Below are positions 1,358 to 42,700 of a stretch of DNA of 64,000 nt, in pieces. Numbering within the stretch: the first letter of the stretch is position 1; each line of letters starts with the position of its first letter. The translations under genes and the position numbers were made by a program. The notes beneath the pieces are model-generated. The model was not told the origin of the DNA. It searched no databases and worked only from the letters and a program-made list of their open reading frames with translations. Origin of the DNA: a virus; the IMG/VR virus record IMGVR_UViG_3300027759_000080, positions 3,874 through 67,873 of that record. One strand, 5' to 3'.

Positions 1358-1401
1358 AATCCTTGAGCATAATATCAAAATAAAATAGTATTTTTGTGCG
1401 T

Positions 1402-8212: not shown

Positions 8213-9054
8213 GTAAAGAAGAGCGTATAATTTGTGTGTATAAAATCACAAGCCCTAGCGGTAAGATTTACATAGGCAGTTCAATTAATTACAAGAAAAG
8301 ATTGACTCAATATAGAGGTGTGTCTTCTAAAAGCCAAACAATATTATATAATTCTTTTTTAAAATATGGAATAGAAAATCATATATTTGAAATAGTTGAA
8401 AATTGTACGAAAGAAAATTTATTAGAAAAAGAGTATTATTATGGTTGTCTATATGATGTTATAGGTGTCAATGGTATGAATTGCAAGCTTCCTAAGTTTG
8501 GAGATAAATATCAAGCAACAAGACAAGAAACAGTTGAAAAAATGAGGCAATGGAAGCCTACTGGAGAAACTATACAGAATATGAAGAACGCTCAACAAAA
8601 AAGAGCTAAAGAAAGTAAAGTATCGGAAGAAACAAAACAAAAACTTAGAAATGCTAATTTAGGGAAAAAAGCTTCGGAAGAAACTAAACTGAAAATGAGC
8701 ATTAAAGGTAAAGGAAGAATAGTATCTGATGAAACTAAATTAAAAATGAAGGCATGGAAAAGAAAGCCTTTATCTGAAGAGCATAAAAATAAAATTAGTA
8801 TTGCAAATGTTGGTCGAAAAATGTTAGAAAGCACTAAAATAGCTGTAATAGCTGCTAACACTGGAAGACCATGCTCTCAAAAAACAAAAGAAAGTGTTTC
8901 TAAAGCAAAGAGCAAAATAATATTTAACCACATAAATGGAATATATTATAATTCTATAAAAGAGGCTTCTAAAATATATAATATAAAACGCACAACATTA
9001 ACAGCAATGTTAGTAGGGCAAAATAAAAATAAAACTAATTTAATATACGCATAA
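8209..9054 (+). CDS. GIY-YIG homing endonuclease with NUMOD3 repeats
   Basis: 'CVYKITSPSGKIYIGSS' and repeated 'SEETKxK' motifs. Confidence 0.9.
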   Translation: MSKEERIICVYKITSPSGKIYIGSSINYKKRLTQYRGVSSKSQTILYNSFLKYGIENHIFEIVENCTKENLLEKEYYYGCLYDVIGVNGMNCKLPKFGDKYQATRQETVEKMRQWKPTGETIQNMKNAQQKRAKESKVSEETKQKLRNANLGKKASEETKLKMSIKGKGRIVSDETKLKMKAWKRKPLSEEHKNKISIANVGRKMLESTKIAVIAANTGRPCSQKTKESVSKAKSKIIFNHINGIYYNSIKEASKIYNIKRTTLTAMLVGQNKNKTNLIYA

Positions 9055-13089: not shown

Positions 13090-13775
13090 TACAGTATAGG
13101 TCTGACAAAGATTGATATTAATAAATCTCTTTGCTCTACAGCCTTCTCTATCTCTTCCATCATCTTCTTCTGAACAGCAGCATCCCTTTTAATTAGCTTG
13201 TAGAATATTCTAGCTTCTAGGGGTAAATTTATTTCAATCTTGTTTCCATCATCATCATACTGAGTGCTTGTCAAGTAGCGCACTAGGTAATGCTCTTCTA
13301 CAGGAGGATGTCCTAGTGCCTCATTAGACTTAGACAGAGCCATCATCTGACACTGTGCTTGGTAGAAGTATTCCTTAGGTACGTCTTGGTACTCAGAATT
13401 CTTATCATCAAACATCATCATCTTCTGCTCAAAGAACTTCTCTGTAGGACACTTGATATCTCCACTAGCTATGATAACATCTCCATCCATAACTGCGAAG
13501 TCGGGTGTAGCTCCACTATTCTCATTGATAGGGTAGTAACGCTCCTCTAGGTATACGGCATTGATTCCTGTTGTTGCTACAAAGTTCTCTAGAGCCTCTG
13601 ACTCATTTAGAATACCATGGTCGGTGTGCCTGCTGCTGAAAGACTTGGAGTAGCCCTTAACACTCTCCTCTGCTTTATTAAATATGTACTTATCCTTGGT
13701 AGCACCCTTGCCACCTATGAATAAATTGTAGATACCTGATGCGGTAAATTTACCTCGTCTCTCTTTGCTTAGCAT
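13089..13775 (-). CDS. YqaJ/lambda-exonuclease family protein
   Basis: 'RRGKFTAS', 'GATPD', 'DIKCP', 'YFYQAQCQM'. Confidence 0.85.
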   Translation of the reverse strand: MLSKERRGKFTASGIYNLFIGGKGATKDKYIFNKAEESVKGYSKSFSSRHTDHGILNESEALENFVATTGINAVYLEERYYPINENSGATPDFAVMDGDVIIASGDIKCPTEKFFEQKMMMFDDKNSEYQDVPKEYFYQAQCQMMALSKSNEALGHPPVEEHYLVRYLTSTQYDDDGNKIEINLPLEARIFYKLIKRDAAVQKKMMEEIEKAVEQRDLLISIFVRPIL

Positions 13776-13938
13776 ATATATATTATTTAATTATTTTGGC
13801 TTGTTTTTATGTTAATAGACTGGACAAAATTCTTGTATTTGTTCCTCTGTTATTCTTTGCTTTATTAAAGCTACTTCTTCTTTGGGCAAGGAAGCTATCT
13901 CTAACTCCCTTGCTTGTCCAAATAAATCTTTACTCATG

Positions 13939-18369: not shown

Positions 18370-18526
18370 ATAATTTAATTATTAATTTTTTGACTTGTTT
18401 CTTGAATTCTTCGTGGTGCTTGGTTCTCACACTTATTGTCACCCCTTTGACCTCGAACCCGAAGCCCTTGCGCCCCGAGTTCTCTCTTTTACCACCCCAA
18501 CTACCTTTGCTCTTATTTATTTCCAT
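18356..18526 (-). CDS. Small basic putative DNA-binding protein (56 aa), not in ORF track
   Basis: 'WGGKRENSGRK' motif. Confidence 0.65.
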   Translation of the reverse strand: MEINKSKGSWGGKRENSGRKGFGFEVKGVTISVRTKHHEEFKKQVKKLIIKLYEND

Positions 18527-18789
18527 TACGATACTTTGTCTTTAAAATATTCTGATACTTTATAAAATGCGGTCTCAAACTCTTCTTCAGTGCTCACCTC
18601 CCAATTACCATGCAAGGCAACATTTACTGACACCTCGGTAATACTATTATTACCAAACTTTGATTGGCACACTTGAATAACCTCACCTTCACTTATTATT
18701 TTGTAAAAATGAATAGCACTATTCCTTACATACATTGGGAGACTCATCTCAACCATTTCCGTTACTGTTTTTCTTATTTCTACTTTCAT
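18526..18789 (-). CDS. Hypothetical protein
   Basis: 87 aa coupled ORF. Confidence 0.6.
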   Translation of the reverse strand: MKVEIRKTVTEMVEMSLPMYVRNSAIHFYKIISEGEVIQVCQSKFGNNSITEVSVNVALHGNWEVSTEEEFETAFYKVSEYFKDKVS

Positions 18790-18796
18790 ATTGTTA

Positions 18797-19027
18797 TTAT
18801 TGTTTTAAACTGATTAAATTATCCTCGTACCATCCGTACCACATATTAAAACTATCTTGGATGAAGTCCTTGTATACTAGGAGTTCGGTATCATCCTCAG
18901 ATATCTGATACATATTACCCTCCTCGTCTTCTAGAACATCCCTTAGCTCATCAAATGTTCTAGCATGGGCAAGTTCACAAGCCACTTCCATCACACTTAT
19001 TGTTATTAATTTATCTGCTGATTCCAT
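18797..19027 (-). CDS. Hypothetical acidic protein
   Basis: 76 aa ORF. Confidence 0.6.
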   Translation of the reverse strand: MESADKLITISVMEVACELAHARTFDELRDVLEDEEGNMYQISEDDTELLVYKDFIQDSFNMWYGWYEDNLISLKQ

Positions 19028-19120
19028 TATTTATTATTATCGTTAATTGTTTTGATTAATGTTCCTACCATAACCGCTAGGATTATGAATAGGCTAAACT
19101 TAATTATTTCTTCCACAATA

Positions 19121-19324
19121 CTATTCTATTGTATGTATTCTACTTGAGTCAGGAACTTCAGTGGCAAACAACTTGTTGTCACACCTTCTGAATAGTTCGT
19201 CATAACTAAACTCGTATTCTTTCATCCTCTTGATATCTTCTTCACTTTTAGCATAGAAGAATTGTGTTCCCATGTAGTCTCCATTGCAAATATGAACGAC
19301 TGCGAATAATTTATTATTTTCCAT
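19121..19324 (-). CDS. Hypothetical protein
   Basis: 67 aa ORF, A-rich leader. Confidence 0.55.
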   Translation of the reverse strand: MENNKLFAVVHICNGDYMGTQFFYAKSEEDIKRMKEYEFSYDELFRRCDNKLFATEVPDSSRIHTIE

Positions 19325-19356
19325 ATTATTTATTTCTCCTTTTTTTTATTATTTTA

Positions 19357-19800
19357 TTAAATTGTTGATGGTGTTCTTTGAGCTAGTTTGTCGCACTCTT
19401 CTTTGGTTATAAATCCATACCTACAAAAAGAATGCATGATAGAGTAGTTAGTGTGGAATATCATATCCATCCCACATCCACTTATTGTAAAGTAGCCATA
19501 ACTATTTTTGCTTTCTTTGTACCCTAGGGCTCTGAATAGGCACGAATAATTTCTTTGGTAGTATTCGTTATCGTTGTATGCGTATTTCTCACAACTAGTA
19601 AACTTAATCTTTCTACTCATGCCACTTGAAGACACCGACCCGATTACGTTAATCATCCTATTTTCTCTGACTGCCTTAACGTATGCCTCTGCATCAGATA
19701 TAAAAGTATCTACACTGTAGTAAGGCACGTTGTTTATGTCCTTAACTAAAGAAGTGTCAGACATAATTTTTTCTTTGATTTTTTCAATTTGATTTTCCAT
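19357..19800 (-). CDS. Phage hypothetical protein
   Basis: 'VSSSGMSR', 'GCGMDM' motifs. Confidence 0.65.
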   Translation of the reverse strand: MENQIEKIKEKIMSDTSLVKDINNVPYYSVDTFISDAEAYVKAVRENRMINVIGSVSSSGMSRKIKFTSCEKYAYNDNEYYQRNYSCLFRALGYKESKNSYGYFTISGCGMDMIFHTNYSIMHSFCRYGFITKEECDKLAQRTPSTI

Positions 19801-19974
19801 GTGTTTTTTTTGTTGTTTTTTTTTAAACTAGTTCCTCAATAATTCCTATAACTTCACTTGCTACTAATACCGAGACTGCTATCTCAATATCTACTACCAA
19901 TAGTATGTAACCTACTATTCTTATTACTGATTTAAATAGGCTTATTTGTAAGTGCCTCTTTGCGTTTGGATGAT

Positions 19975-20160
19975 TCATATTTTTTCTCCTTTTTCTTTTA
20001 TTAAATAAATGTTGTTTTCTTCTATCCACTCATCGACTATTCTCTCTGATTCGTCTCTGCATGAACCCATTTCTCCTAGTCCAAAGTCCTCGTTGGACAT
20101 CAGTGTTTCGTATATTTTATATACTAAACTGTTGTAACTTTTTTGCGTTATTGTATCCAT
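19975..20160 (-). CDS. Hypothetical protein
   Basis: 61 aa ORF. Confidence 0.5.
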   Translation of the reverse strand: MDTITQKSYNSLVYKIYETLMSNEDFGLGEMGSCRDESERIVDEWIEENNIYLIKEKGEKI

Positions 20161-20168
20161 ACTTTCTA

Positions 20169-20978
20169 CTATAATTTTGGTTCTAAATCTTTGTTTACTT
20201 TACTAAATGGCAGTGCTGATATTAACTCACTGTATCCCACCTCTACTAGCTCCTCAATAAAGTCAGTGCCTAGTAAGATTGACTTTGCCCTAGCCTCATC
20301 AGACAATACCTTTAAGTAGCCATAGTCCAAGTCAATGTCATCGACATTGTCTCTGATTAACTTGATTCTATCATCACTACCTAGCTCCTCGATATCAATG
20401 TAGTTTATGGTAGCAAATTCATCTATACAAACATTGCTAATCACGTCTTCATAAAAATCATGCTCACTTAAATCCTCATTTACTAAGGCAAAGTCTAGTA
20501 TAGTACCTAGTACATGACCATCTTTATCTAGCACACTGAAATTTAAGGTGTTTTCAGCCCATTCTATTGCGTTATTAGGATAGAATGATATAAAGCCATC
20601 CCTAGAGGTGTATCTTTGTTTTAAATAGCTATTAAAAGCATCGTAATTACTATGTATGTACGAGACAATGTTGTCTACTATAGGAATAATCTCGACATCT
20701 ATAGAATCATTCACAAAGTTATAGTAGTTAGGAGATGTAATGTGTTGATATGTTATTGACTCAATTAAGCCTAGCTCAACTAACTTACTCTCTATCTCAG
20801 ATGTTATTGACACTGCTATTTTGTGCCTATAGCCTAGCCAATCTACTTCTACCTCATCTGAGGAAACCTCGTTGTATTCACAAAAACTTTCTAGCTCACT
20901 GTCTCCATCCCATATTGTACAGTAGAACCCCTTGAACAATGGCAACCATGTATAGATTGCTTTAGCTTGACTATCCAT
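20169..20978 (-). CDS. Acidic hypothetical protein
   Basis: 269 aa; 'SPNYYNF..D', 'TSRDGFISFY'. Confidence 0.65.
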   Translation of the reverse strand: MDSQAKAIYTWLPLFKGFYCTIWDGDSELESFCEYNEVSSDEVEVDWLGYRHKIAVSITSEIESKLVELGLIESITYQHITSPNYYNFVNDSIDVEIIPIVDNIVSYIHSNYDAFNSYLKQRYTSRDGFISFYPNNAIEWAENTLNFSVLDKDGHVLGTILDFALVNEDLSEHDFYEDVISNVCIDEFATINYIDIEELGSDDRIKLIRDNVDDIDLDYGYLKVLSDEARAKSILLGTDFIEELVEVGYSELISALPFSKVNKDLEPKL

Positions 20979-21366
20979 ATACCACCTCCCCTAAAACTAT
21001 GTACTGAAAAACAACATCACTACTACTAGCATCTCCATCTTCCTTTAGCTCATTCTCTAGAGCCCAAGCATCAGAACTGTTAGCTAGTAGCTCTAACCTT
21101 TCAATTAACGTATCTCTAGTGATTACTCCTAGCACTTCTTCCTCATCCTCGGCATCGTTTATCTCCACCTCTACTCCATGCTCTAGGACTGCCTCTAAAA
21201 TGGCTGATGCAATGTAAGGATTACTTGACTTGGGCACTGCTTGTCTTACCTTCTGAACTTGCTCATCGGTTATGTAGTACCAATAGTTACTTCCACCTTC
21301 TAAGGCAGTGGTAAAGATGTTATCTAAAACATCCTTGCTGATTTTTCTTTTGATTGTAATTTCCAT
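20971..21366 (-). CDS. Acidic hypothetical protein
   Basis: 'ALEGGSNYW...DA...D...Q...GEVVYG'. Confidence 0.65.
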   Translation of the reverse strand: MEITIKRKISKDVLDNIFTTALEGGSNYWYYITDEQVQKVRQAVPKSSNPYIASAILEAVLEHGVEVEINDAEDEEEVLGVITRDTLIERLELLANSSDAWALENELKEDGDASSSDVVFQYIVLGEVVYG

Positions 21367-21395
21367 GATTATTTATCTCCTATTTTTTATTTAAA

Positions 21396-21983
21396 TTATG
21401 ATTTTAAGTCCCAAGCAAGTGATTCATTACTATTTAAATCACAAGCAATCTCTATGTTGTTTAAGTGTGTTATTGCAGTATCACACTGAATAGTTGGCTT
21501 GTTAAATATGTCGAATGCATTGATATTAATAAAATCTCTTATAAATACTTGGTCTTCTAGGATAAGTCCTAATCTATATTTTAAAGACTCATTCTCTACT
21601 CTTAAAATGTATCCTAACTGCGAAAGCATTTGGTCTTCCATGTTTAGATTCTTAATAATAAACTCCATGGTTTCGCCATCGATGTCTATAGTCTTTAACT
21701 CATCAATTGCATTGTGCACAATATCCCTAACTCGTTTGTCATCCATGATGTATGTGCCACTCTTTAAGAACTTTTGCCTAGCTTGATAGTCTTTATAGAA
21801 TAACTGCATACACTCTAGTTCATGCATTGTATCTACATTAAACTTGCTCTCTAGGAATAGGTTGTAGACTTTAACTGCCTCGTCCCACATGATGTCTAGC
21901 TCTCTATCGTTAATGCCAATGATGTGTGCCATACAAAATACACGATAGTAAAACTCTTGGTTTTTAATTTGATTGTTTGTCAT
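21396..21983 (-). CDS. Hypothetical protein
   Basis: 195 aa with repeated leader. Confidence 0.6.
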   Translation of the reverse strand: MTNNQIKNQEFYYRVFCMAHIIGINDRELDIMWDEAVKVYNLFLESKFNVDTMHELECMQLFYKDYQARQKFLKSGTYIMDDKRVRDIVHNAIDELKTIDIDGETMEFIIKNLNMEDQMLSQLGYILRVENESLKYRLGLILEDQVFIRDFININAFDIFNKPTIQCDTAITHLNNIEIACDLNSNESLAWDLKS

Positions 21984-22019
21984 AATGATTGATTGTTTTT
22001 TTTAAATTGTGATTGATTA
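21981..22019 (-). repeat. ~39-bp repeated translation-initiation leader (copy at 22245-22284)
   Basis: TAATCAATCACAATTT-A8/9-CAATCAATCATTATG in both. Confidence 0.85.
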
Positions 22020-22247
22020 ATTAATTTCTTCCTCAACTATGATATCATCAACGTAACAATTTACATTGTATTTGCCAATGTTTAAATGGTCAATGATAGC
22101 TTGAATTTGGGAGCAGTCGTCTTCTGCGCTCCATCCCTTGCCTAGAACAATTTCTGCTACATCCTCTAGATTGTTGCCATTCACGAATGCGTAAGTTGAA
22201 AAGTAATTACCTTCGATTGATTTTTTAATTTGATTTTTTGATTTCAT
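22017..22247 (-). CDS. Hypothetical protein
   Basis: Start moved to MKSKNQIK after the repeated leader. Confidence 0.6.
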   Translation of the reverse strand: MKSKNQIKKSIEGNYFSTYAFVNGNNLEDVAEIVLGKGWSAEDDCSQIQAIIDHLNIGKYNVNCYVDDIIVEEEIN

Positions 22248-22302
22248 AATGATTGATTGTTTTTTTTTAAATTGTGATTGATTAGTTATTATTAATTGTT
22301 TG

Positions 22303-22348
22303 AACATATGAGGGGAATCGAACCCCTCACTAGAACCATTTTTATGCT
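22303..22348 (-). ncRNA. tRNA-half-like T-loop element, copy 1
   Basis: AGCATA-AAAATGGTTCTAG-TGAGGGG TTCGATT CCCCTCA-TATGTT. Confidence 0.7.
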
Positions 22349-23249
22349 ATGCAAATGTGAATATTTTATTATCCACAGTATTCTCGGTAACAAACTTCAT
22401 TACCTCATCGAATGCTATGTTATTCATGCGATAACCACCACCACTAACTAGGTAATGTAACTTATCATTCTCATCCTTTGGCGCACTAACGTGGTTTGTG
22501 TAACGTGTAACGGCATTAAATAATCCCCATATAGTCTTACCTTCCAAATTAATTTCAGTTTGTAAGGAATCAGCAAAAGCGGTCACTTGATTTAGCTTTC
22601 TACTGCTTACATCTTTCTTATTAGTGTTAACATCAATAGTGAATAGTTTTCTTATCACACGTTCCACCATCTCATCCTTTAGCTCGATGTCAGCCATCTT
22701 CTTGAAGTTACCCATCAATACTTCATCTAGATGCAAAGCCTTTCTTAAATCAGCCATGGCAGTCTCAATTCTACTCTTTGCTGATTCAGTGTGACGGAAC
22801 TTATCTAAATCTTTGTATGCACGATGGAAAGTATTTTTGCATACTACTACTTGACTAGTTGACCCGAATCCGATTGATGCACTGCCATCATTAGAATTCA
22901 AGGCAGTAATCCATCTCATGATAGATGACTTCCCGATGTACATACTAGGTAAAGCGGCTTGTAAGTATACCTTCTTACCTCCATCTAGTTCACCTCCTCT
23001 AGTAGTCTCTAAACCGATGCCCTCGGTAGCTCCTACGATGGTTTCTGCTAACTCCCAATTCTGCATTGGCACATAACGATTACCTACACTTCCTAACCAT
23101 GCATCAGTATCGTTTCTGAAGATACCAAATGTCTCGGTGTTTTTACCATCTTTAGCAAATAACTCTTCTTTGCTTACTGACCAATTTAAATTAGTGCTTT
23201 CTAATAAATTAAAAGTCTTTTCTTGGATTGATTGATTGTTGTTTTTCAT
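22347..23249 (-). CDS. DUF932-like phage/plasmid protein
   Basis: 'LNWSV', 'LGSVGNRYVPMQN', 'NSNDGS', 'VVCKNT', 'WGLFNAVT.Y..H'. Confidence 0.8.
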   Translation of the reverse strand: MKNNNQSIQEKTFNLLESTNLNWSVSKEELFAKDGKNTETFGIFRNDTDAWLGSVGNRYVPMQNWELAETIVGATEGIGLETTRGGELDGGKKVYLQAALPSMYIGKSSIMRWITALNSNDGSASIGFGSTSQVVVCKNTFHRAYKDLDKFRHTESAKSRIETAMADLRKALHLDEVLMGNFKKMADIELKDEMVERVIRKLFTIDVNTNKKDVSSRKLNQVTAFADSLQTEINLEGKTIWGLFNAVTRYTNHVSAPKDENDKLHYLVSGGGYRMNNIAFDEVMKFVTENTVDNKIFTFA

Positions 23250-23267
23250 GATTTTTGTTATTTAATT

Positions 23268-23324
23268 GTTTAAGACAAGGCTTTTTAAACCTTGTTTCGA
23301 TTATTTAAATCTCGTCAGTTAAAC
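23268..23324 (-). ncRNA. Type I hammerhead ribozyme
   Basis: GTTTAA CTGACGA GATT-TAAAT-AATC GAAA CAAGG-loop-CCTTG TC TTAAAC; all core nucleotides and three stems. Confidence 0.9.
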
Positions 23325-23485
23325 TATTGTACATTGTCTCGATAATAGTTAGCTATGCTTATTACTTCCAATGCTAACTGCTCGTTAGACATCTTTGCCA
23401 AGCTAACTACATCTTGTACTGTTTCGAATTCGTCAGATGCCAAATCCATGATGGCATCAATTAATTTTTCTCTGATTGTTTCCAT
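23324..23485 (-). CDS. Small hypothetical protein (53 aa), not in ORF track
   Basis: METIREKLIDAIMDLASDEF...; stop abuts hammerhead. Confidence 0.6.
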   Translation of the reverse strand: METIREKLIDAIMDLASDEFETVQDVVSLAKMSNEQLALEVISIANYYRDNVQ

Positions 23486-23490
23486 GGTGT

Positions 23491-23778
23491 TTATATGCTT
23501 TTTAAATCTTTGTGATACTTATATAAAATTGCTTCGCTTGAATCGTAGCTAAGATGTGTGGCATCCTTATTTATCCTATCTCTTGATGATGGATAGTCAT
23601 CTTCTCTTTTAATGCTTCTAATAGCATTACGCATATCCTTTTTTGCATCTGCTACACTGCTATAATTTAGCCAAATGCAATTGAACATCCCATCCTTTTT
23701 ACTTTCGTAATTTGACATCTTTGATAGTATCTTGAAGTTACCACCGATTTGACCCGTAATTAAAATTTGTGCTCTCAT
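23491..23778 (-). CDS. Hypothetical protein
   Basis: 95 aa ORF. Confidence 0.6.
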   Translation of the reverse strand: MRAQILITGQIGGNFKILSKMSNYESKKDGMFNCIWLNYSSVADAKKDMRNAIRSIKREDDYPSSRDRINKDATHLSYDSSEAILYKYHKDLKSI

Positions 23779-23947
23779 GATTTAATTGTCTCCTATTTTA
23801 ATAATTGAATAATAACCATCAATGAATTCATTGTTACATGAATCGAATTGATAGTACTCTTGTACTCTTGCTTGTGCCAATTCCAATGTAGGAAATGCGC
23901 TGATAATACTGCCATTTGCAGTGTTTTGAATGATGTAATTTGTCATG

Positions 23948-24277
23948 CTATTTAATTGATTTTTTAGGTTTGATAAAATATGCTCCGTTTGGACTGTAGA
24001 CTTCGTAATTCATAGCATCTGCTATTCTAGTTAAATCTAGCAGTCTCTGAGCAATCTGCTGAGGAAGAAATGAGTACTTCGTACCTACATTCCACTGCTC
24101 TTTTTTACTGCTCTGCTCCTCTAGGCATTTGTACTTATTGAATTGCCATTCCAATTCACATTTTAATTCTCTAGCATTCTCGCAGTCATTTATTATACGT
24201 TCTGCAAACTTTGTTGATGCCAATGATGGACTGTTTTTTAATCTTAAGAAAGATTCCTTTTGAGTGATTGTTTTCAT
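23948..24277 (-). CDS. Hypothetical protein
   Basis: 109 aa with CAATCAATCA leader. Confidence 0.6.
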   Translation of the reverse strand: MKTITQKESFLRLKNSPSLASTKFAERIINDCENARELKCELEWQFNKYKCLEEQSSKKEQWNVGTKYSFLPQQIAQRLLDLTRIADAMNYEVYSPNGAYFIKPKKSIK

Positions 24278-24315
24278 GTTGATTGATTGTTTTTTTTAGT
24301 GATTAATTAATTGAT

Positions 24316-24603
24316 TTATTGTGAGCACAAGTCCCATGACTCTAGCTCGTTTACTCTTTTAACATTTAAGCCTAATTCCTTATAAATAAAATTAGCTAAT
24401 TTAGTATTACCTACAGTGCCTTCAGCTATCTGATTTGTGCCTATAGATGCTACAACGTCTGAAGTGCTCATGCCTAATATTCTACTGCAAAATTTAACAT
24501 CTTGCCCTAAGAAGAATTGTTTGACATATTTTTTGTTTCTGACTACTAATGACCAATTATGACAAAAGCCATATTCCGTTGTGATTAAGATTGTTTTCTT
24601 CAT
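24316..24603 (-). CDS. Hypothetical protein
   Basis: 'FFLGQDVKFCSRILG'. Confidence 0.6.
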   Translation of the reverse strand: MKKTILITTEYGFCHNWSLVVRNKKYVKQFFLGQDVKFCSRILGMSTSDVVASIGTNQIAEGTVGNTKLANFIYKELGLNVKRVNELESWDLCSQ

Positions 24604-24627
24604 GATATTTATTTATTTAATTGTTTG

Positions 24628-24671
24628 AGCATAGCATGGGAATCGAACCCATGCCTTGAACCATTTATGCT
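24628..24671 (-). ncRNA. tRNA-half-like T-loop element, copy 2
   Basis: AGCATA-AATGGTTCAAG-GCATGGG TTCGATT CCCATGC-TATGCT. Confidence 0.7.
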
Positions 24672-25081
24672 AGTGTTTGCTTATTCTTTACTTCTATTAT
24701 AAACTGCGAATTAACATAAGAGACGTGCTCTTTTATGATTTTAGGAAGATGTTTGATATCGAATTCTTGATAGTTGTGAAAATTACCTTCGTAATTGCCA
24801 TCACAAGCAGTAATTACACCATAATTATTTAGCACTCTAAACGATTTTATATGTCTATAGCTTTGATAATTGCCATAGTCACTAGTATTAACGCATATGG
24901 TAATATCCTTGAATTTCTTTTTAGATACTTTCACTGCATTCTTAAACGATTCTAGTATGTCATCTGCATCTATCAGATAACTGCTAGTTGTGAATAGCAT
25001 ATCAACTATTCTGACTACTGAAGTAGTGTTTCTATCAATCTCAGATTCGATTTCGATAGTAATTTTGATTGTTTTTTCCAT
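24665..25081 (-). CDS. Hypothetical protein
   Basis: 138 aa ORF. Confidence 0.6.
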   Translation of the reverse strand: MEKTIKITIEIESEIDRNTTSVVRIVDMLFTTSSYLIDADDILESFKNAVKVSKKKFKDITICVNTSDYGNYQSYRHIKSFRVLNNYGVITACDGNYEGNFHNYQEFDIKHLPKIIKEHVSYVNSQFIIEVKNKQTLA

Positions 25082-25085
25082 GTGA

Positions 25086-25211
25086 TTAGTGATTAATTAA
25101 GATTGTTGATAAAATAACGATTGTAAAGAAAGCAGTCATACCAATTAACTGCAAACTAGCTTGTTTTCTCATTTTTGATGCCCATGGGCAATTCTTTGAT
25201 TGTTTTTTCAT
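25086..25211 (-). CDS. 41-aa membrane peptide, not in ORF track
   Basis: MKKQSKNCPW...GMTAFFTIVILSTILINH; typical leader. Confidence 0.55.
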   Translation of the reverse strand: MKKQSKNCPWASKMRKQASLQLIGMTAFFTIVILSTILINH

Positions 25212-25244
25212 GTGATTGATTGGTTTTTTAAATGTGATAATTGA

Positions 25245-25568
25245 TTAATATCTGCCTATGTTACCGATGTAATGGAAATGACTAGAAGTAGTAACTTTAT
25301 AACCTAATTTATTAGCTACATAGTAACAAGCATCTCTTAAGCGCTTGATATCATTGGTATCTTTGCTATATAATTCACCTAAATACCATTGTTGGTATAA
25401 ATCACCTCGGTTAATCTGCTTTTCTATGGTTTGAGCGAAGTTTAACTCCCAACATATAGTTTGCTTGATGTCTCGTAGTGTTTCGCAGTCCTTAAATACC
25501 ATTCTAACTCTTGGATTCATTGGGAATTCTGCTTGTAATTCTGCTAATAATTGATTTTTAGTTTTCAT
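25245..25568 (-). CDS. First gene of early operon, hypothetical
   Basis: Start moved to MKTKNQLL after repeated leader. Confidence 0.6.
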   Translation of the reverse strand: MKTKNQLLAELQAEFPMNPRVRMVFKDCETLRDIKQTICWELNFAQTIEKQINRGDLYQQWYLGELYSKDTNDIKRLRDACYYVANKLGYKVTTSSHFHYIGNIGRY

Positions 25569-25597
25569 AATGATTGATTGGTTTTTTATGTGATTGG

Positions 25598-25647
25598 TTA
25601 GCCAATAGATGAATCGACATCTGATGAATTCCAAATTAATTGGCTAA
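25598..25647 (-). ncRNA. tRNA-half-like element, divergent copy 3
   Basis: TTAGCCAAT-linker-AGATG TCGATT CATCT-ATTGGCTAA then CCA. Confidence 0.5.
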
Positions 25648-25954
25648 TATATTTTATTAATGGTCAAAATAAGTTTATTGTTAGTAAACTTATAAAAACA
25701 TCATGGTATATCCCCTCCATGATAGGTTTATTCGATTGATTCGTAGTCTATTATACGATATCAGTATCTGTTTTCAACTGTATTTCAGTGTTTATTGGTT
25801 TAGAGTCGTAAATGATTCACATTATATAGATTCGGCAATGTTTCACAACAAACTAACTATATAAAACTACTCAATGATTAGTATCTTTATACATATACAT
25901 ACTAATTGACTAAAAGAACGATATTTTCGAGAATTTTTCGGCTTGAAAACATTG

Positions 25955-25984
25955 GCAATATACGAGCACATTTTATAAATGCAA
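25955..25984 (-). promoter_or_regulatory. Candidate early promoter TTG-N19-TATATTGC
   Basis: Near-consensus -7 box with correct spacing. Confidence 0.5.
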
Positions 25985-26023
25985 GCACTAATCAAGATGA
26001 AATTATAATTATTTTTCAAGTGA

Positions 26024-26653
26024 TTGATTATCAAGATGATTATTTTTAGTATAATTCAAGATAATAATGCAAGTGAATGATAATGAGGGGAATAAAATAT
26101 ACTGCTGATAATCAATGATATAGCAAGTAGTATTCAAGAATGAAAACTAAATAGCTGAAAATGAGCACTATAAGTTAATAAACTGAATGTGAGATGTTTA
26201 CATTACTGAAAATGAGCACAAAATATAAAGATATTAGGCTAAAAAATCACTAAGGATAAAAGGATAATTATAATGCTTACTGATAAGAATAATAACATCT
26301 ATAGTAACGGAATATTTATGATGACCATGTTTAACATTAGATAGGAATGCATAAGGCAATTCACAGTCTTTAGCTATTCGATAGTATGTAATGCCTTTAC
26401 TAACACATAGTGAGTCTATCCATCGAATGAATAGCAAATGTGCCTTTAAACGATTGGCATTCCGTATTTCATATGTAGTATTATCGTTTTTGATGTGCAA
26501 TGATAAGGATATTTTGACGTTATTAGTCATTTAAAGGGCTAAAAAAACTATGCTCTCAAAAACTTGTCTCCATCCCATGAGCAATTGGCATTTTGCATCT
26601 TATAATCAGCAAGTTATATTTTGAAGATGATTTTGTAAATAGCTGATTATCAT
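26024..26653. repeat. Cluster of degenerate palindromes (C/T)TGA-N3-T(C/G)A(A/G)
   Basis: Copies at 26024, 26077, 26105, 26155, 26183, 26206, 26599, 26643. Confidence 0.65.
26234..26530 (-). CDS. XRE/Cro-like HTH regulator
   Basis: 'GITYYRIAKDCELPYAFLSNVKHG...TIDVIILIS'. Confidence 0.65.
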   Translation of the reverse strand: MTNNVKISLSLHIKNDNTTYEIRNANRLKAHLLFIRWIDSLCVSKGITYYRIAKDCELPYAFLSNVKHGHHKYSVTIDVIILISKHYNYPFILSDFLA

Positions 26654-26984
26654 TCAACCATTTCATTGAGTCTTCGAGGATTGTATGCTAGTATTATTTA
26701 CCCATGTGAAACGTTCGTTTCTGATAGTACAAAGCAAGGCAGTAAGCAATATGTTTATGCCTATTGCCTATTGGCTTTGCTCAGTTTCTTTGGTTTCTAT
26801 TTACCAAATATTTATAAATTATATGTTGGATGTCATCGTAATACCTTTTAAATCAATGTGGTGGCAATGGTTCTCATGGGGTGGCGGATGTTTTTTTGAG
26901 CGACTCGGTGATGGCTTTTATTATGGTTACCGCACATTTTCACCGCCATACCTTCTTTGCACGACCTCCTTGCCGACCACCAAT

Positions 26985-27031
26985 AAAAAAAACCCCACCG
27001 CCCTAGTTATCAGGGGGTGGGGCTATTTTTT
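26985..27031 (-). terminator. GC-rich, probably bidirectional terminator
   Basis: A8-CCCCACC.CCCT-loop-AGGGGGTGGGG-T run after resolvase stop. Confidence 0.65.
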
Positions 27032-27055
27032 AAAAAATGGGGTGGTATGCGAACG

Positions 27056-27751
27056 CTAGTGAGCGTACTTGTATATAGACTTCAACGATAGCGATATGCC
27101 GTTCTCTAGCAGCCTCCTTTGTATCTCTGCCTTTGGAACATTATTCTGGCTGTACGCTTTGATTAGTTCTATACCTACGTTTGACTTCTTGACGTACACT
27201 CTTTTCTTGGCTATCTCTGCCATTAGTATTTTAGCTTTATTTGGGTCTTGCATTTCAGGATTGCCTAGCGAGCTGATTATGCGTCCGTTCTTTGTTACAT
27301 GGAATCCGTTCTTCTGTATACGAACCTTGATTGAGTTTAGTCCTGCTGCTGTTCTCTCTGATATCATTACTCTCTCTCTTTCTGCCATAGAGCCGAACAG
27401 GTGGATTGAGAAGTTGTCCATCTCTGGTGCATCAGCACACTTGAATTGTACCTTACTATCCATTAGGTTTGCTATGAAACTAATGCTACGAGACAGTCTA
27501 TCTAACTTTGCCACGAGTAGTATTGCCTTCTTCTCCTTGCACAAATTTATTGCCTCTCTTAATTTAGGTCTATCGCTCTTCTTTCCTGACTCAATTTCAG
27601 TAAATGTTGCTACTACTATCCCCTTGTTTGTGATTGGTAATACCATTTGTTCTTGTGCCTCTAGTCCTAGTCCGCTATTGGCTTGCTTGTCTGTTGATAC
27701 CCTGAAGTATGTGACGTAATTGTTGGTAGTTGTACTCATTTTCAGTTCCAT
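27056..27751 (-). CDS. Small serine recombinase (resolvase/invertase)
   Basis: 'YFRVST..Q', 'ESGK', 'VAKLDRLSR', 'ERERVMISERT', C-terminal HTH. Confidence 0.92.
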   Translation of the reverse strand: MELKMSTTTNNYVTYFRVSTDKQANSGLGLEAQEQMVLPITNKGIVVATFTEIESGKKSDRPKLREAINLCKEKKAILLVAKLDRLSRSISFIANLMDSKVQFKCADAPEMDNFSIHLFGSMAERERVMISERTAAGLNSIKVRIQKNGFHVTKNGRIISSLGNPEMQDPNKAKILMAEIAKKRVYVKKSNVGIELIKAYSQNNVPKAEIQRRLLENGISLSLKSIYKYAH

Positions 27752-28437
27752 TTTTGATTATACATTTTTCTCATATTCTCAAGCAGTTGCTCTTGGGTTT
27801 TTATGTACCCCATATCTATAGCGAATGCAAGCTTACCTTCTATTGTCTTCAACTCTTCCAATTGTTTAGCAGTAGCTAAGTTTCTTAAACCTGTTTCGTG
27901 TTTGTTAAATACTATCCAATTAAGTCCTTTTGCTATTGATATATAATCAGGATTGTTAAATCTAGTTATCGCCTTTGACAGGTCTCTGTAAAAATTACCT
28001 GCCTCAATCCTGTTTATAATTAGCGAGTCTGTCAACCATCCTATAACCTCTGCCTTAAATATAGGATTTAAGTCCATGGCTACCATAACAAAGATGTACG
28101 GATTTACCCATACTGCTCTTGTATCTCTAGCTCCAGTTGTCTTATAAACTCCTAGTGTCTTCATGTACTTTGCAAAGCCCTGTTTTTCAATGTTCTCTAT
28201 AAAACTACACATAGGTATTTTTATAACGCCTTGCTTCTCAAGTAAGTAATAAAGAACTTCTATATTGTCTGTCATTATCCTTGCTACATTCTTTTCTACC
28301 CAGCCGTTTTTTACCCTAGATACTGTGTAGGCTTCTTGAAGGTCTGACAAACTAAGAAAACCTTTTTGAGTTTGCTGCCTGATTTTAGTTCCGAATAGAT
28401 TTCTATCTTCCGAAATGATTATTATGTTTGACTTCAT
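27742..28437 (-). CDS. KilA-N domain protein
   Basis: 'IRQQTQKGFLSLSDL', 'WVNPYIFV..A..LNP.FK'; start ATG 28437 after TACATTTG (28443-28450). Confidence 0.7.
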   Translation of the reverse strand: MKSNIIIISEDRNLFGTKIRQQTQKGFLSLSDLQEAYTVSRVKNGWVEKNVARIMTDNIEVLYYLLEKQGVIKIPMCSFIENIEKQGFAKYMKTLGVYKTTGARDTRAVWVNPYIFVMVAMDLNPIFKAEVIGWLTDSLIINRIEAGNFYRDLSKAITRFNNPDYISIAKGLNWIVFNKHETGLRNLATAKQLEELKTIEGKLAFAIDMGYIKTQEQLLENMRKMYNQKWN

Positions 28438-28530
28438 AAGTGCAAATGTATATAAATATTTATAACAAACAAGTTTTATCGTAAAATAAAAAAACCCTAG
28501 CAAATTAATAATAGGGCTACTTGTACTTTT

Positions 28531-28890
28531 TTACAATAACTTTACCATCGGGACTAACACTCCTTTGCTTGTGTTGTTATCTCCTCCTAATGTATATTTT
28601 TGATTGTTTTTCAGAAAGCACTCTCTGACTACCTCCTTTATAATCTTTGTTGGGACTATAATAGCAGTGCCATGCGCCTCTATTCTGTATATCCAAATGT
28701 CTGCGGTGGTAACAGATATTCCACTTGGCTTGCCTCTTGAAAATACTTCTATAAATAGGTTACCAGTCTTATGAGCCATTCTATCGCTCTTAACCTCTAC
28801 CTTAAATGCTCCAGTAAATATTCCCTTTACCCAGTCTTCTGCCTCTTCGCCAAAAGCTAAGTCGTATGTAAATGAGTTTGAGTGCTTCAT
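28531..28890 (-). CDS. PD-(D/E)XK-like phage protein
   Basis: 'VEVKSD...TGNLFIE...PSGI..T.AD'. Confidence 0.6.
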   Translation of the reverse strand: MKHSNSFTYDLAFGEEAEDWVKGIFTGAFKVEVKSDRMAHKTGNLFIEVFSRGKPSGISVTTADIWIYRIEAHGTAIIVPTKIIKEVVRECFLKNNQKYTLGGDNNTSKGVLVPMVKLL

Positions 28891-39716: not shown

Positions 39717-42700
39717 ATGCCAGAAGGAATAGACAAGGGATTATTAGAAGAATACATAGCAACTGCAAATAGCGGTAAATACAAATCAATGGCAGAAGTT
39801 AATGCCAAATTTCCAGAGCTAAAAGACTACAGCCCAGATTTATTAGAGGAGTATGTTGCCACTGCAAATAGTGGTAAATATAAGACTCTTGACGAAGTAA
39901 ATTCAAAATTTCCAGAATTTTCAACATCAAAAACTCCTGCTGTTCCATCGTTCTCAACAGATATGTCAAATACAAATACATTACCTGTAATGAAGAACTC
40001 TCCTCTACAGGCAAATGTAGACAAACCTGTAAAAGTAGTAGCACCGACATACATTGACCCTACAAAAGTTTTAAAAACTAAAGACGTTGTAGATATAAAT
40101 GCAGAAAAAGCTCCAAAGACAATGGCTCAAATTGACGAGGAGAGCAGGATTACTATGCAGAACAGAAATATCTTTACGCTTACGCAGAGAGGTTTAGACG
40201 AAAGTATTGAATACCAAAACTTATTAGTAAAAAAACTGGCAAAGGAATTAGGCTACACTGACGACAATTCCTTAAAAGGAACTACTGCTGTTCAAAAGTT
40301 AGCTAATGACAGACAAGAAGGATGGAAAGAAGATTATTTAGAACCAGAAGAACTAGCTCAAGTAAGAGCTTTTGAAGACTACGAAGTATTTAAAGAACAA
40401 GGGAGAGAAAAAGAATCAAACGAGGCTTTACAAAAATATTTAAACAGCAGGACTGAGTACAGAAAAAAAATAGACAACGATATAGTAGATTTAAAAGGAG
40501 AACTGGTTTCAGCAGAAGGTGATGATGCAGTATTAATAAGGGCAACCATTGCCGAGCTAGAGGCTAAAAAACTTCCTTTTTATGACCCTAAAAAGCAGAT
40601 GGAATCATTTTTAACAGAAAATGAGACAGATGTAGCAGCAGTGTCTAAACCTACAGAGACGGCTCAAGAAAAATTAAAAAAATATATACTTGCACAAGAT
40701 AATCTTGTAACTAATTTAAGAAATAGACTTGGAATTACTGGTAAAAACAATAGCTTTCAAAGGTTTACAGATGAATGGAAAGTACTACAAGGAGACAGAA
40801 GACAAAAAGATGATTTAGAACTTCTTCATAATACAGAATTAAAAATAAAGAATGCTGTTCAGATACTTGAATTAAATAGAACCCCTTTAGACAAAGACAG
40901 TGCGTGGGGCGTACTTGCTAAAGAATTTGTTGGAGAACTGATTCCTATGAAGAAAGGTTTTAGTGGAGTAGACAATACGATAGCTGCAAATATTGGCAGT
41001 ATAGTTAGGGACGCAGATATAACGTATGCCGCAAATGAAAAGCAAGTACAAACAGCTGAATTTGCTAGTAATCAATATCAGTTTGGTAGTGCAAAGTGGG
41101 TTTCTCAAAATTTAGCCCCAACACTAGCTATTATGGTCGAAATGATACCAGCGACATTGCTTACGGAAGGCTTAGGGTCGACTGGATATTTATCAAGACT
41201 AAGTAGACCTTTAAAGATTTTAGCAGAAAGAGGTAGCCTAGGTAAAGCTGGAGGAACTTTTTTTAAAGTAATACAGGCAAATAAATATGGTCGTGGTTTA
41301 TTAAAAGCTGCCGCCAGTGGTGTTAATTACGGTATAGAAAGTCAAGCAGTTACAATGCTTGCTCCTCAATTAAAAGATGAGATGGGCTTTTCTAATGGTT
41401 TATTTGCAGGGACTGTTGGTTCGATAGCTGGTCAGCTTACTGGTAAGGTAATGGAGACTAGTTTAAAGTCTATCGCTACATTATTTGGCAATAAAGCTCC
41501 ACAGGCAATTGCTGCAATAGAAAAATACGGTTCGGTAATAGCTAAAGCTAAAGAATTTAGTAATACAGTTGCAGGGGAAACTGTTGAGGAGTATGGAGAG
41601 CAATTAATGAGTATATATAAAGAAAGTGATAACTATAAAAACTTTATATATAATCTTAAGAAGCACTACGAGACCACTGACGCTTTAGAAGAGTTTGCTA
41701 CTATATTAATGATGTCGGTAGGAGCTCCAGCAGGTAGCACTTTAGGCAAAAGTTTATTTAGTGCAAGTAAAAAAGCATATAATAACCTTAGCAGAAAAGA
41801 AAGAGAAACAGCTAGTAGAATGGCGGATGAAATTCATAATGAAGTTAATCTAGCTATGGATGATGCCGCTAATCAAACTATAAGAGACGAAAATATACAA
41901 GTTCCAACTAGAAGTAATGAAGAGCAAGACAACGCTATTCTTCAAAAGCAAAAAGATTTAAAACTTCCTACAGCTCCTGAAGTAGTATTATCTGATGTTA
42001 GTAAGGCTGCCATGGCTAAAATGGAGGGTGGAGAAGCTCTGACTATTGAGGAGCTAAAAGAACTTAGTAATGAGCTTTATCAAAGATATAACGGTATATC
42101 AGCAACAAAAGACCAAGATAATAGACAGTTTACTACAGAACAAATAAACGAAACTTTAATCAAGCTAGAAAATAATATTACTTTATTAGAAAATAGTAAA
42201 AATAAATTAGAAGAGTCTGGAGAGGCTAGTATTGTTGTAAATCCAAATGAGGCAGTTACACAGGACGCTAAACCTGTAACAAGTACACCTAATACTAAAT
42301 TTTATCAAGGTGTTGATTTTAGAGCACAAACAGGGTTACCTAACGGTGACTACACAGAAGAACAAGTAAAGGCAGCTAGAGAGGCTAAATTAAAGAAAGA
42401 AGGCGTAACGCCAGCAGAAATAGAAACAATAAATGCAGAAGAAGAAATTATACCAGCAACTGAAACCCCTGCTGCACCAATTAGCGGTGTTAGTGGTGAG
42501 GTACAGGCATCTGGTGATGTAGAACAAACAACAGCTAGCGAGAATGAGGTTAAAGCCGAAGAGATAAGAAACAAACTAGATAAACTTACAGAAGGATTTG
42601 TAAATGATGGCAAAACTGAAAAAGAAGCAGAAGACTTAGCTTTTAAATCTATATCAGAAGAAGAAAAGCAAGTATTAAGAGATAGTTATAACGAATCAAG

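Follow-up and report, generated by a model that had tools for sequence, protein, structure and literature searches.

Thousands of hammerhead ribozymes are known in phages and prophages. The accessible text of Perreault 2011 (PMC3088659) describes hundreds of bacterial hammerheads near prophage genes, several of which flank single genes such as ardA, and reports cleavage of ~2-kb native transcripts in vitro as well as in vivo cleavage for the ardA cluster of A. tumefaciens. The same text proposes that mRNAs of gene length are cut from long phage transcripts; in a halovirus, it places a hammerhead 13 nt ahead of a start codon, with a cleavage site that matches a mapped 5′ end (PMC3088659). Ribozymes of this class leave a 2′,3′-cyclic phosphate on the 5′ product and a 5′-OH on the 3′ product, according to the available part of a 2019 review (PMC6765202), and those without tertiary contacts are described as slow at physiological Mg2+ in the accessible part of PMC3088659. 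The purpose of phage hammerheads was still called undefined in the available sections of the review (PMC6765202). The original prediction for the DNA studied here, that phage hammerheads are known and their role is unclear, agrees with what both sources state in these parts (PMC3088659, PMC6765202).

Here we describe a hammerhead in the window, by which we mean the whole stretch of 64,000 nt that was analysed. The source, a virus contig of 67.9 kb with an estimated completeness of 94%, carries a terminase and a portal and belongs to an uncultured tailed phage. In its core, its three-stem fold and its position in a gap between co-directional genes, the element resembles the type I hammerheads of phages and prophages (RF00163), as far as the accessible part of PMC3088659 sets these out. 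Unlike RF00163 members, it lies below the gathering score, would be missed by automatic annotation and is present as a single copy in the genome. A further comparison is with HHphage of haloviruses HF1/HF2: there, the 5′ end of a transcript has been mapped close to the cut, and HHphage is a core and structural variant from an archaeal virus with a salt-dependence hypothesis attached to it in the accessible text, whereas the window element has a canonical core (PMC3088659). With RAGATH-1 (RF03152) it shares type I topology and a long stem III. The window hammerhead is previously unannotated, but it belongs to a known type, that of hammerheads between phage genes, and as a ribozyme it is ordinary.

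A type I hammerhead between two co-directional genes

Read from the sequence, the type I hammerhead occupies 23324..23268 on the minus strand (Table 1) and sits in a 74-nt gap (23250-23323) between co-directional ORFs. All the parts that had been claimed for it (stems, core, GAA and a GUC cut triplet) are present on that strand, stem III reading ACAAGG/CCUUGU. The invariant C3 U4 G5 A6, G8 A9 and G12 A13 A14 were all found, with zero deviating core positions. The A15.1-U16.1 pair is formed by A 23295 with U 23275, position 17 is not a G, and the pair G10.1-C11.1 that closes stem II is G 23311 with C 23299. Stem I is the open stem, stems II and III being capped, and the topology is therefore type I. 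The predicted cut position and the 24-nt leader are likewise correct in coordinates and arithmetic. By analogy with the class, the 5′ product would carry a 2′,3′-cyclic phosphate and the 3′ product would begin with a 5′-OH U at 23273.

Stem I has six pairs, five of them A-U. In the minimum-energy fold of the element (z-score -2.0) stems II and III form and this A/U-rich stem is absent. Loop II has U, A and U at positions 1, 3 and 5 in at least 90% of aligned family rows. Inspection of loops and tail across the family alignment identified no tertiary stabilising contact in the window hammerhead. A pseudoknot between loop II and the 3′ tail (UUAAU with AUUAA) fits two close relatives, L001 and L003, and has one mismatch in the window; we rejected it as a family feature because the wider family is without such pairing. 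We also rejected stem III as an intrinsic terminator, given that a U run is absent after it and the terminator scan lists nothing there.

Table 1. Positions of the hammerhead, its parts and the neighbouring features in the window
Feature	Sequence or form	Position	Strand	Score, source or remark
Hammerhead stem I	GUUUAA / UUAAAC	23324-23319 / 23273-23268	minus	
Hammerhead core	CUGACGA	23318-23312	minus	
Hammerhead stem II hairpin	GAUU/AAUC, 5-nt loop	23311-23299	minus	
Hammerhead GAA	GAA	23298-23296	minus	
Hammerhead stem III hairpin	ACAAGG/CCUUGU, 9-nt loop	23295-23275	minus	
Hammerhead C17	C	23274	minus	
Predicted self-cleavage site	after C 23274	23274/23273	minus	from hammerhead numbering
A/U-rich leader left on DUF932 mRNA (predicted)	24 nt	23250..23273	minus	ATG at 23249
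DUF932-family gene, downstream cistron	300 aa	22347..23249	minus	PF06067 E 8.4e-30; phrog_1221 E 6.7e-37
ORF upstream of hammerhead	53 aa	23324..23485	minus	ORF list
tRNA-like element A		22302..22348	minus	R2 58 bits; follows DUF932
tRNA-like element B		24627..24671	minus	R2 62.3 bits; between ORFs 25081..24665 and 24603..24316
Best sigma-70-like promoter matches	11/12 and 10/12 matches	25750..25848	minus	232-nt gap heading the leftward block

The 53-aa ORF upstream had no family match in Pfam or PHROG searches. The last base of its UAG stop codon (23326-23324) is the first G of stem I. On the other side, the 24-nt DUF932 leader contains AAACAAUUAA, a motif common to the leaders behind tRNA-like elements. 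The surrounding minus-strand block consists of small, co-directional and mostly unknown genes, and a leftward polycistronic transcript may start at the promoter-like sites that head it, although the total of promoter-like sites is not above that in shuffles. Between these sites and the hammerhead the sole terminator-like site (25152-25132) is weak. A blastn search with 22000-24000 against 50,697 phage records returned no match, and among the 24 runs listed by a sequence-word search there was no RNA run, all matches being DNA contigs that share a small part of the words. Elsewhere in the window, an element at 19040-19112 is identical in two relatives, without covariation, and has no Rfam match.

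Model scores and covariation

At gathering thresholds, Rfam gave no match anywhere in the window. Hammerhead models, which had been proposed as a check, bear out the element in alignment and fall short in score: in E-value mode on 301 nt, RF00163 (Hammerhead_1) aligned at the site over its full length (model positions 1-45) with 29.7 bits against a gathering score of 34. To judge from the alignment, the missing bits are lost in the loop II region and in the long insert of stem III; the core does not account for them. With all 4227 Rfam families run over the whole window, the site had E-values of 0.0028 (RF00163) and 0.018 (RF03152); with RF00163 alone over the 67,873-nt genome, the E-value was 7.1e-7. 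Weak RF00163 matches at E<=10 also occur in 13 of 14 well-known control genomes, none of them above the cut-off. A linear pattern of the core found one site in the window, and 3/100 shuffles gave as many matches; the core alone therefore proves little. The RAGATH-1 hammerhead model aligned end to end at the site (301 nt), scoring 36.9 bits against a cut-off of 56.3. We rejected membership of that family on this score and because the model's extra 5′ hairpin falls in the upstream coding sequence; such a hairpin is not kept in L003, where an unrelated upstream gene precedes the same ribozyme.

A more discriminating result came from a leave-out covariance model (R3), built from 23 hammerheads on 19 viral contigs, none of which belongs to the window's phage clade. 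At E<=10 the window yielded a single match, which spans 23326..23265 and scores 66 bits, with an E-value of 7.3e-13 under rough calibration; over the whole 67.9-kb genome there was also one match. By the measures of sequence and covariation, the window hammerhead is confirmed as a genuine member of the hammerhead motif class. The consensus had been called established, which is apt for the motif but does not extend to cleavage.

Relatives were retrieved from IMG/VR by a pattern in which the core and stem I were fixed and stems II and III free; it yielded 30 stretches on 29 viral contigs. In a scan of a genome collection (32.2 million contigs) the pattern found only 2 stretches, both on MAG contigs, which are too few to name the host of the window phage. 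The sub-family (stem I GUUUAA/UUAAAC, loop II U-N-A-N-U) is thus nearly confined to viral contigs, and it may already figure in the supplementary alignments of Perreault 2011. RNAalifold, given 33 sequences, predicted the three-stem hammerhead fold unaided. In that fold, pairing survives changes on both sides at 6/15 pairs (three in stem II and three in stem III), with 1 broken cell. The core columns are invariant in the alignments of 33 and of 23 relatives, the retrieval pattern having fixed them for most rows.

A search of the window and 49 loci (507,610 nt) with a covariance model, R1, yielded 48 matches at E<=1. Only one of these is in the window, and many come from loci that overlap on the same contigs. 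Some of the members had escaped the pattern, namely three more in L025 and one more in L018, the two loci in which the ORFs beside family members were checked. In L025, 4 hammerheads share 1.7 kb, and every one of them occupies a gap with small ORFs on either side. Among the members found by the model, stem I itself covaries (GCAUAA/UUAUGC, GAUUAA/UUAAUC, AUCUAA/UUAGAU and GUUUAU/AUAAAC).

In a MAFFT alignment, A6, of 23 sequences from 19 contigs, from which the window clade was excluded by design, pairing holds in 99.7% of 345 cells; sliding the partners by 1-3 columns lowers this to 31-38%. Changes on both sides occur in 11/15 pairs, including 4/6 of stem I. The covariation score is 0.583, compared with at most 0.073 when slid. 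The paired fraction, the number of pairs or cells changed on both sides and the covariation score were reached by 0/500 shuffles, and the count of further pair types by 41/500. Alignments A3 and A6 leave out L016, which has a very long stem III insert, and five loci (L027, L031, L034, L035 and L037) that in A1 are identical or near-identical to rows that were kept. Compensatory changes in relatives thus back all three stems, and with every core position in place the claim of an intact type I hammerhead stands. By manual count, an ATG lies within the displayed 25-31 nt of 3′ flank in 20/27 aligned members.

The same junction in close relatives

Nine loci encode DUF932 proteins that are 96-98% identical to that of the window; L001-L005 are viral contigs and L055-L058 metagenome contigs, some of which may be the same DNA as L001-L005. 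Directly upstream of DUF932, a hammerhead is found in the window and in L001, L002, L003, L005, L055 and L057. A tRNA look-alike, of the kind described below, occupies this slot in none, neither element is present in L004 and L058, and L056, with 56 nt of upstream sequence, is not assessable. The slot directly downstream of the gene is shared out differently: five loci (L001, L002, L005, L055 and L058) have a hammerhead there, and five (the window, L003, L004, L056 and L057) have a look-alike. DUF932 is therefore flanked by hammerheads on both sides in L001, L002, L005 and L055. These sister phages repeat the arrangement of hammerheads around a single gene that the accessible text of PMC3088659 gives for prophages.

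The second hammerhead, after the DUF932 stop codon in the five loci, is also type I, with stem II GACU/AGUC and stem III CAAUUGG/CCAAUUG. The look-alike in the same slot is 45-47 nt long and consists of a 6-bp acceptor-like stem, an AUGGUUC linker and a 7-bp stem with UUCGAUU as its T-loop. The window and L001 have orthologous genes after the slot (MKSKNQIKKSIEGNYF and MTNNQIKKSIEGNYF, respectively, by manual translation), and in both the leader of this gene opens with AAACAAUUAA. Upstream of DUF932, the hammerhead of the sister phages has stem II GCAU/AUGC where the window has GAUU/AAUC, so that two pairs are changed on both sides.

The relatives also differ in the genes around these elements. 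L003 has kept the hammerhead and DUF932, with an upstream gene unrelated to the window's. In L058, the upstream gene of the window and the hammerhead are followed by an extra gene before DUF932. That extra gene is present in L004, which has no hammerhead in the 3 kb upstream. Across this comparison of relatives, gene cassettes are exchanged exactly at the hammerhead or look-alike elements. Among DUF932 homologues at 24-71% identity (L006, L007, L059-L065), a hammerhead or look-alike was found in 0/9 of the flanks examined. We therefore rejected a specific link between the hammerhead and DUF932, given these distant homologues and the lack of a hammerhead directly upstream in L004 and L058; moreover, our literature search found no paper joining hammerheads and DUF932. 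Judged from these genome comparisons, the hammerhead is a mark of the gene junction and not of the DUF932 gene, for which it is dispensable. The original prediction was right to place it upstream of a DUF932-like gene, but its connection with that gene is incidental.

tRNA-like elements in nearby gaps

The look-alike that follows DUF932 in the window, element A, comprises an acceptor-like stem of 6 bp, the start of which lies within the stop codon of DUF932, a linker with AUGGUUC and a 7-bp T arm with loop UUCGAUU. A further copy in the window, element B, has the same architecture; compared with A, three T-stem pairs are changed on both sides and one acceptor pair goes from G-U to G-C. ARAGORN reported no tRNA and no tmRNA in the window, and in Rfam searches of the two elements only the T arm aligned, weakly, to tmRNA. 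We rejected them as true tRNAs because the D and anticodon arms are absent and ARAGORN was negative.

A pattern scan for the look-alike found 15 viral stretches, and 13/17 sequences were aligned, L039, L044, L048 and L052 being left out for unclear acceptor pairing. A covariance model (R2) re-found L052, L048 and L044 at 35, 26 and 18 bits and missed L039. Its 43 matches at E<=1 across 50 sources include two in the window. In the model-fitted alignment, the T arm and a 5-6-bp acceptor-like stem pair in 88.2% of 373 cells, against 36-47% when slid; 13/13 pairs show changes on both sides in this alignment, which its fitting biases in favour of the structure. From the alignment before fitting, plain RNAalifold recovered the T stem alone.

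Look-alikes also turn up in contigs that were chosen for their hammerheads, namely L016, L021, L029 and L036 (4/25 outside the window clade). In L016 the look-alike lies 50 nt after the hammerhead. L043 has three look-alikes, each directly before a Shine-Dalgarno sequence and ATG. Of five near-complete phage records that bear a hammerhead, three carry a tRNA look-alike; in two of the three, which are complete, unrelated records, a single hammerhead and a single look-alike lie within ~1 kb on the same strand. These counts, taken from hammerhead-bearing contigs, suggest that co-location of the two elements may be enriched.

The look-alikes resemble mitochondrial tRNA punctuation and the plant mitochondrial t-elements, as described in the accessible part of Forner et al. 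2007 (PMC1920247), in being tRNA-like folds between cistrons. By analogy with t-elements, elements A and B could be cut by the enzymes that process tRNA ends, which would form mRNA ends. Unlike organellar t-elements, as far as that text presents them (PMC1920247), the phage elements lack both the D and the anticodon arm, and at a given junction a self-cleaving ribozyme can take their place.

Discussion

We consider it fairly probable (roughly 70%) that the window hammerhead is an RNA-punctuation element, which cuts a polycistronic early mRNA just upstream of a translation start. As the operon is transcribed, the stem II and III hairpins would fold and the weak six-pair stem I would close after them, whereupon the RNA would cut itself after C 23274. 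Because the topology is type I, the whole ribozyme would stay on the upstream fragment and the downstream fragment would keep six nucleotides of stem I. The upstream message, comprising the 53-aa ORF and the preceding genes, would thus end in a structured 3′ end with a 2′,3′-cyclic phosphate, and the DUF932 message would be freed with a 5′-OH and a short, unstructured, A/U-rich leader of 24 nt. With five A-U pairs, stem I would probably fall apart after the cut and render cleavage irreversible. The upstream stop codon overlaps stem I, and terminating ribosomes could disturb folding as a result. We infer transcription as one unit, cleavage in vivo, an effect on stability or translation, and the enzymes that act on the look-alike.

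In this role the hammerhead would act as punctuation and as an insulator: neighbouring cistrons would be uncoupled, and each message would receive a standard leader whatever its upstream context. The tRNA look-alikes in nearby gaps would probably perform the same task via host RNase P and possibly RNase Z. This role is suggested by the ATG that lies shortly 3′ of the predicted cut in family members and by the swap between hammerhead and look-alike. Synthetic insulators of the RiboJ type place a self-cleaving ribozyme before the ribosome-binding site and so give a context-independent 5′ leader. RiboJ is an engineered descendant of a satellite-RNA ribozyme, and the leader that it produces retains a hairpin. 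Unlike RiboJ, the window hammerhead would leave only the six stem I nucleotides.

A broader proposal, on which we are evenly divided, is that hammerheads and stripped tRNA mimics are interchangeable punctuation cassettes across many unrelated phages. That early polycistronic mRNAs would be cut by them just upstream of translation starts is a part of this proposal to which we give the same even odds. Near-identical phages swap the two elements at an orthologous junction, and under this proposal selection would therefore keep the cut, not the end chemistry. Our literature search, which had most subscription journals outside its scope, found no description of an alternation between hammerheads and tRNA look-alikes in phages.

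Other explanations have to be weighed against the same observations. It seems unlikely that cleavage is instead conditional or destabilising and that the hammerhead serves as a regulatory switch to turn down DUF932 or the upstream genes, for example by cutting only when the upstream ORF is untranslated or under certain ions and exposing the RNA to decay. In favour of a switch, one base belongs both to stem I and to the stop codon of the 53-aa ORF, so that a ribosome terminating there would sit on the 5′ strand and some of the core. The accessible text of Perreault 2011 (PMC3088659) does raise regulated cleavage of phage hammerheads, and the search of the window element, which found no tertiary stabiliser, would suit a slow, tunable ribozyme. 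Yet tRNA look-alikes, which have no such coupling, can take the slot of a hammerhead, and a ligand-binding or sensor domain is absent from the 57 nt. The family moreover has its predicted cut at a short, fairly constant distance before start codons, which looks built for a translatable leader. Mosaic breakpoints that coincide with the element in L003, L058 and L004 could point to a linker at the DNA level, namely a homology patch at gene boundaries for cassette recombination, with RNA cleavage secondary or vestigial. A patch of this kind needs neither three-stem covariation nor an invariant catalytic core, yet both are seen, and stems II and III vary freely between copies, leaving little DNA identity beyond ~20 nt; we regard a linker as distinctly improbable.

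That the element is a chance match or a decayed, inactive relic is harder still to maintain, and we give it very little credence. The core pattern matches as often in 3/100 shuffles, the score is under Rfam gathering and weak RF00163 matches exist in 13/14 control genomes; against this stand the genome-wide E-value of 7.1e-7, the single leave-out match at 7.3e-13, a core without a deviating position, and sister phages that retain the element with two stem II pairs changed on both sides. Equally remote, in our estimation, is end joining, in which cuts on both sides of a gene would supply ends for an RtcB-type ligase and give circular or spliced RNA. The possibility is mentioned in the accessible text of Perreault 2011, where such products are also said to have been sought but were undetected (PMC3088659). 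Four loci (L001, L002, L005 and L055) have the hammerhead-flanked DUF932 gene that end joining calls for, but a look-alike stands on the 3′ side of the gene in the window, L003 and L057. An RNase P cut of this look-alike would presumably leave a 3′-OH and thus no substrate, going by the end chemistry given in the available part of PMC6765202. Models that require ribozyme-made ends at both borders of the gene, circle ligation among them, are therefore disfavoured by the swap.

Returning to punctuation, the phages with 96-98% identical DUF932 that carry a hammerhead or a look-alike at the same junction constitute a natural experiment, and through the swap the purpose of phage hammerheads, an old question, becomes directly testable. 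The short type I design, with its weak stem I and clean leader, may also interest builders of ribozyme insulators. If both elements are cutting signals, the role of the ribozyme would be testable by simple swap constructs, and annotation pipelines that rely on Rfam thresholds would be missing a whole layer of phage gene-expression signals. Phage early operons would then be punctuated like mitochondrial transcripts. Should the interchangeable cassettes prove real, they would be a viral counterpart of the mitochondrial tRNA-punctuation principle.

tRNA look-alikes and other structured intergenic elements

Both tRNA look-alikes of the window (45-47 nt) have a 6-bp acceptor-like stem, a linker bearing AUGGUUC and a 7-bp T arm with the loop UUCGAUU, and from both the D arm and the anticodon arm are absent. 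After each of the two comes AAACAAUUAA and then an A-rich leader. In some sister phages, close relatives of the window phage, the slot of the first look-alike is occupied by a hammerhead.

Selected features of the window
Feature	Position	Strand	Remarks
tRNA look-alike (first)	22302-22348	-	intergenic gap; starts inside the DUF932 stop codon
tRNA look-alike (second)	24627-24671	-	intergenic gap; same operon as first
2900-aa ORF	39717-48419	+	
1532-aa ORF	1396-5994	+	
1242-aa ORF	49077-52805	+	weak match, DarB-like antirestriction family (phrog_10089, E 1.9e-11)

A third intergenic stretch of structured appearance is found at window positions 19040-19112 (-), which begins at its 5' end with GUUUAG, as does, in similar form, the second hammerhead of the sister phages, and which ends with AAAACAAUUAA. 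The hammerhead core, however, is absent from it. A search of the stretch against Rfam gave nothing, and the fold reaches a z-score of only -1.8. The same sequence occurs in two of the compared loci, L009 and L019, and therefore no covariation could be drawn from that comparison. In L060, a phage whose DUF932 is 63% identical, the slot after this gene is free of both hammerheads and tRNA look-alikes; a distinct G/C-rich hairpin lies there (1478-1520, +), possibly another type of cassette.

Two sister phages yielded matches of their own. In L003 we observed a type III hammerhead (585-642, +) upstream of another small gene, aligned over its full length to RF00008 at 30.2 bits (cut-off 48.5; local E 5.2e-5). 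It has no counterpart in the window, and two hammerhead topologies are therefore in use within the window clade. In L033, positions 13729-13868 (+) match the Rfam tRNA model at 29.4 bits (cut-off 29), spanning 140 nt vs the 71 positions of the model, and may represent a tRNA gene carrying a long insertion.

Leader motif and large ORFs

On the minus strand, from about 18400 to 28600, the motif AAACAAT[C/T]AA occurs repeatedly just 5' of start codons in the leftward early genes. When up to one mismatch is tolerated, the window contains 48 matches vs 25.8 ± 5.2 in shuffled sequences, and 48 was reached by none of 100 shuffles. As no Shine-Dalgarno sequence is visible in the leaders bearing it, the motif may be a translation-initiation signal of the window phage and its host. 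Of the very large ORFs, that of 1532 aa had no match in PHROG.

Tandem elements and stop codons within the hammerhead

L016, a viral contig outside the window clade, carries a tandem of a hammerhead and a tRNA look-alike spaced 50 nt apart (8669-8840, +), with no plausible ORF in the interval. If cleavage took place at both elements, a short free RNA would come off.

The 5' part of the hammerhead (window 23312-23326, -; L025 6776-6783, +) contains stop codons in two frames, UAA in stem I and UGA within CUGA. In L025, another hammerhead-bearing contig, the stem I UAA is the stop of an upstream ORF, and in the window the stop UAG of the upstream ORF overlaps stem I by one base. Stops supplied by the hammerhead may make insertion of the cassette right after any ORF easier.
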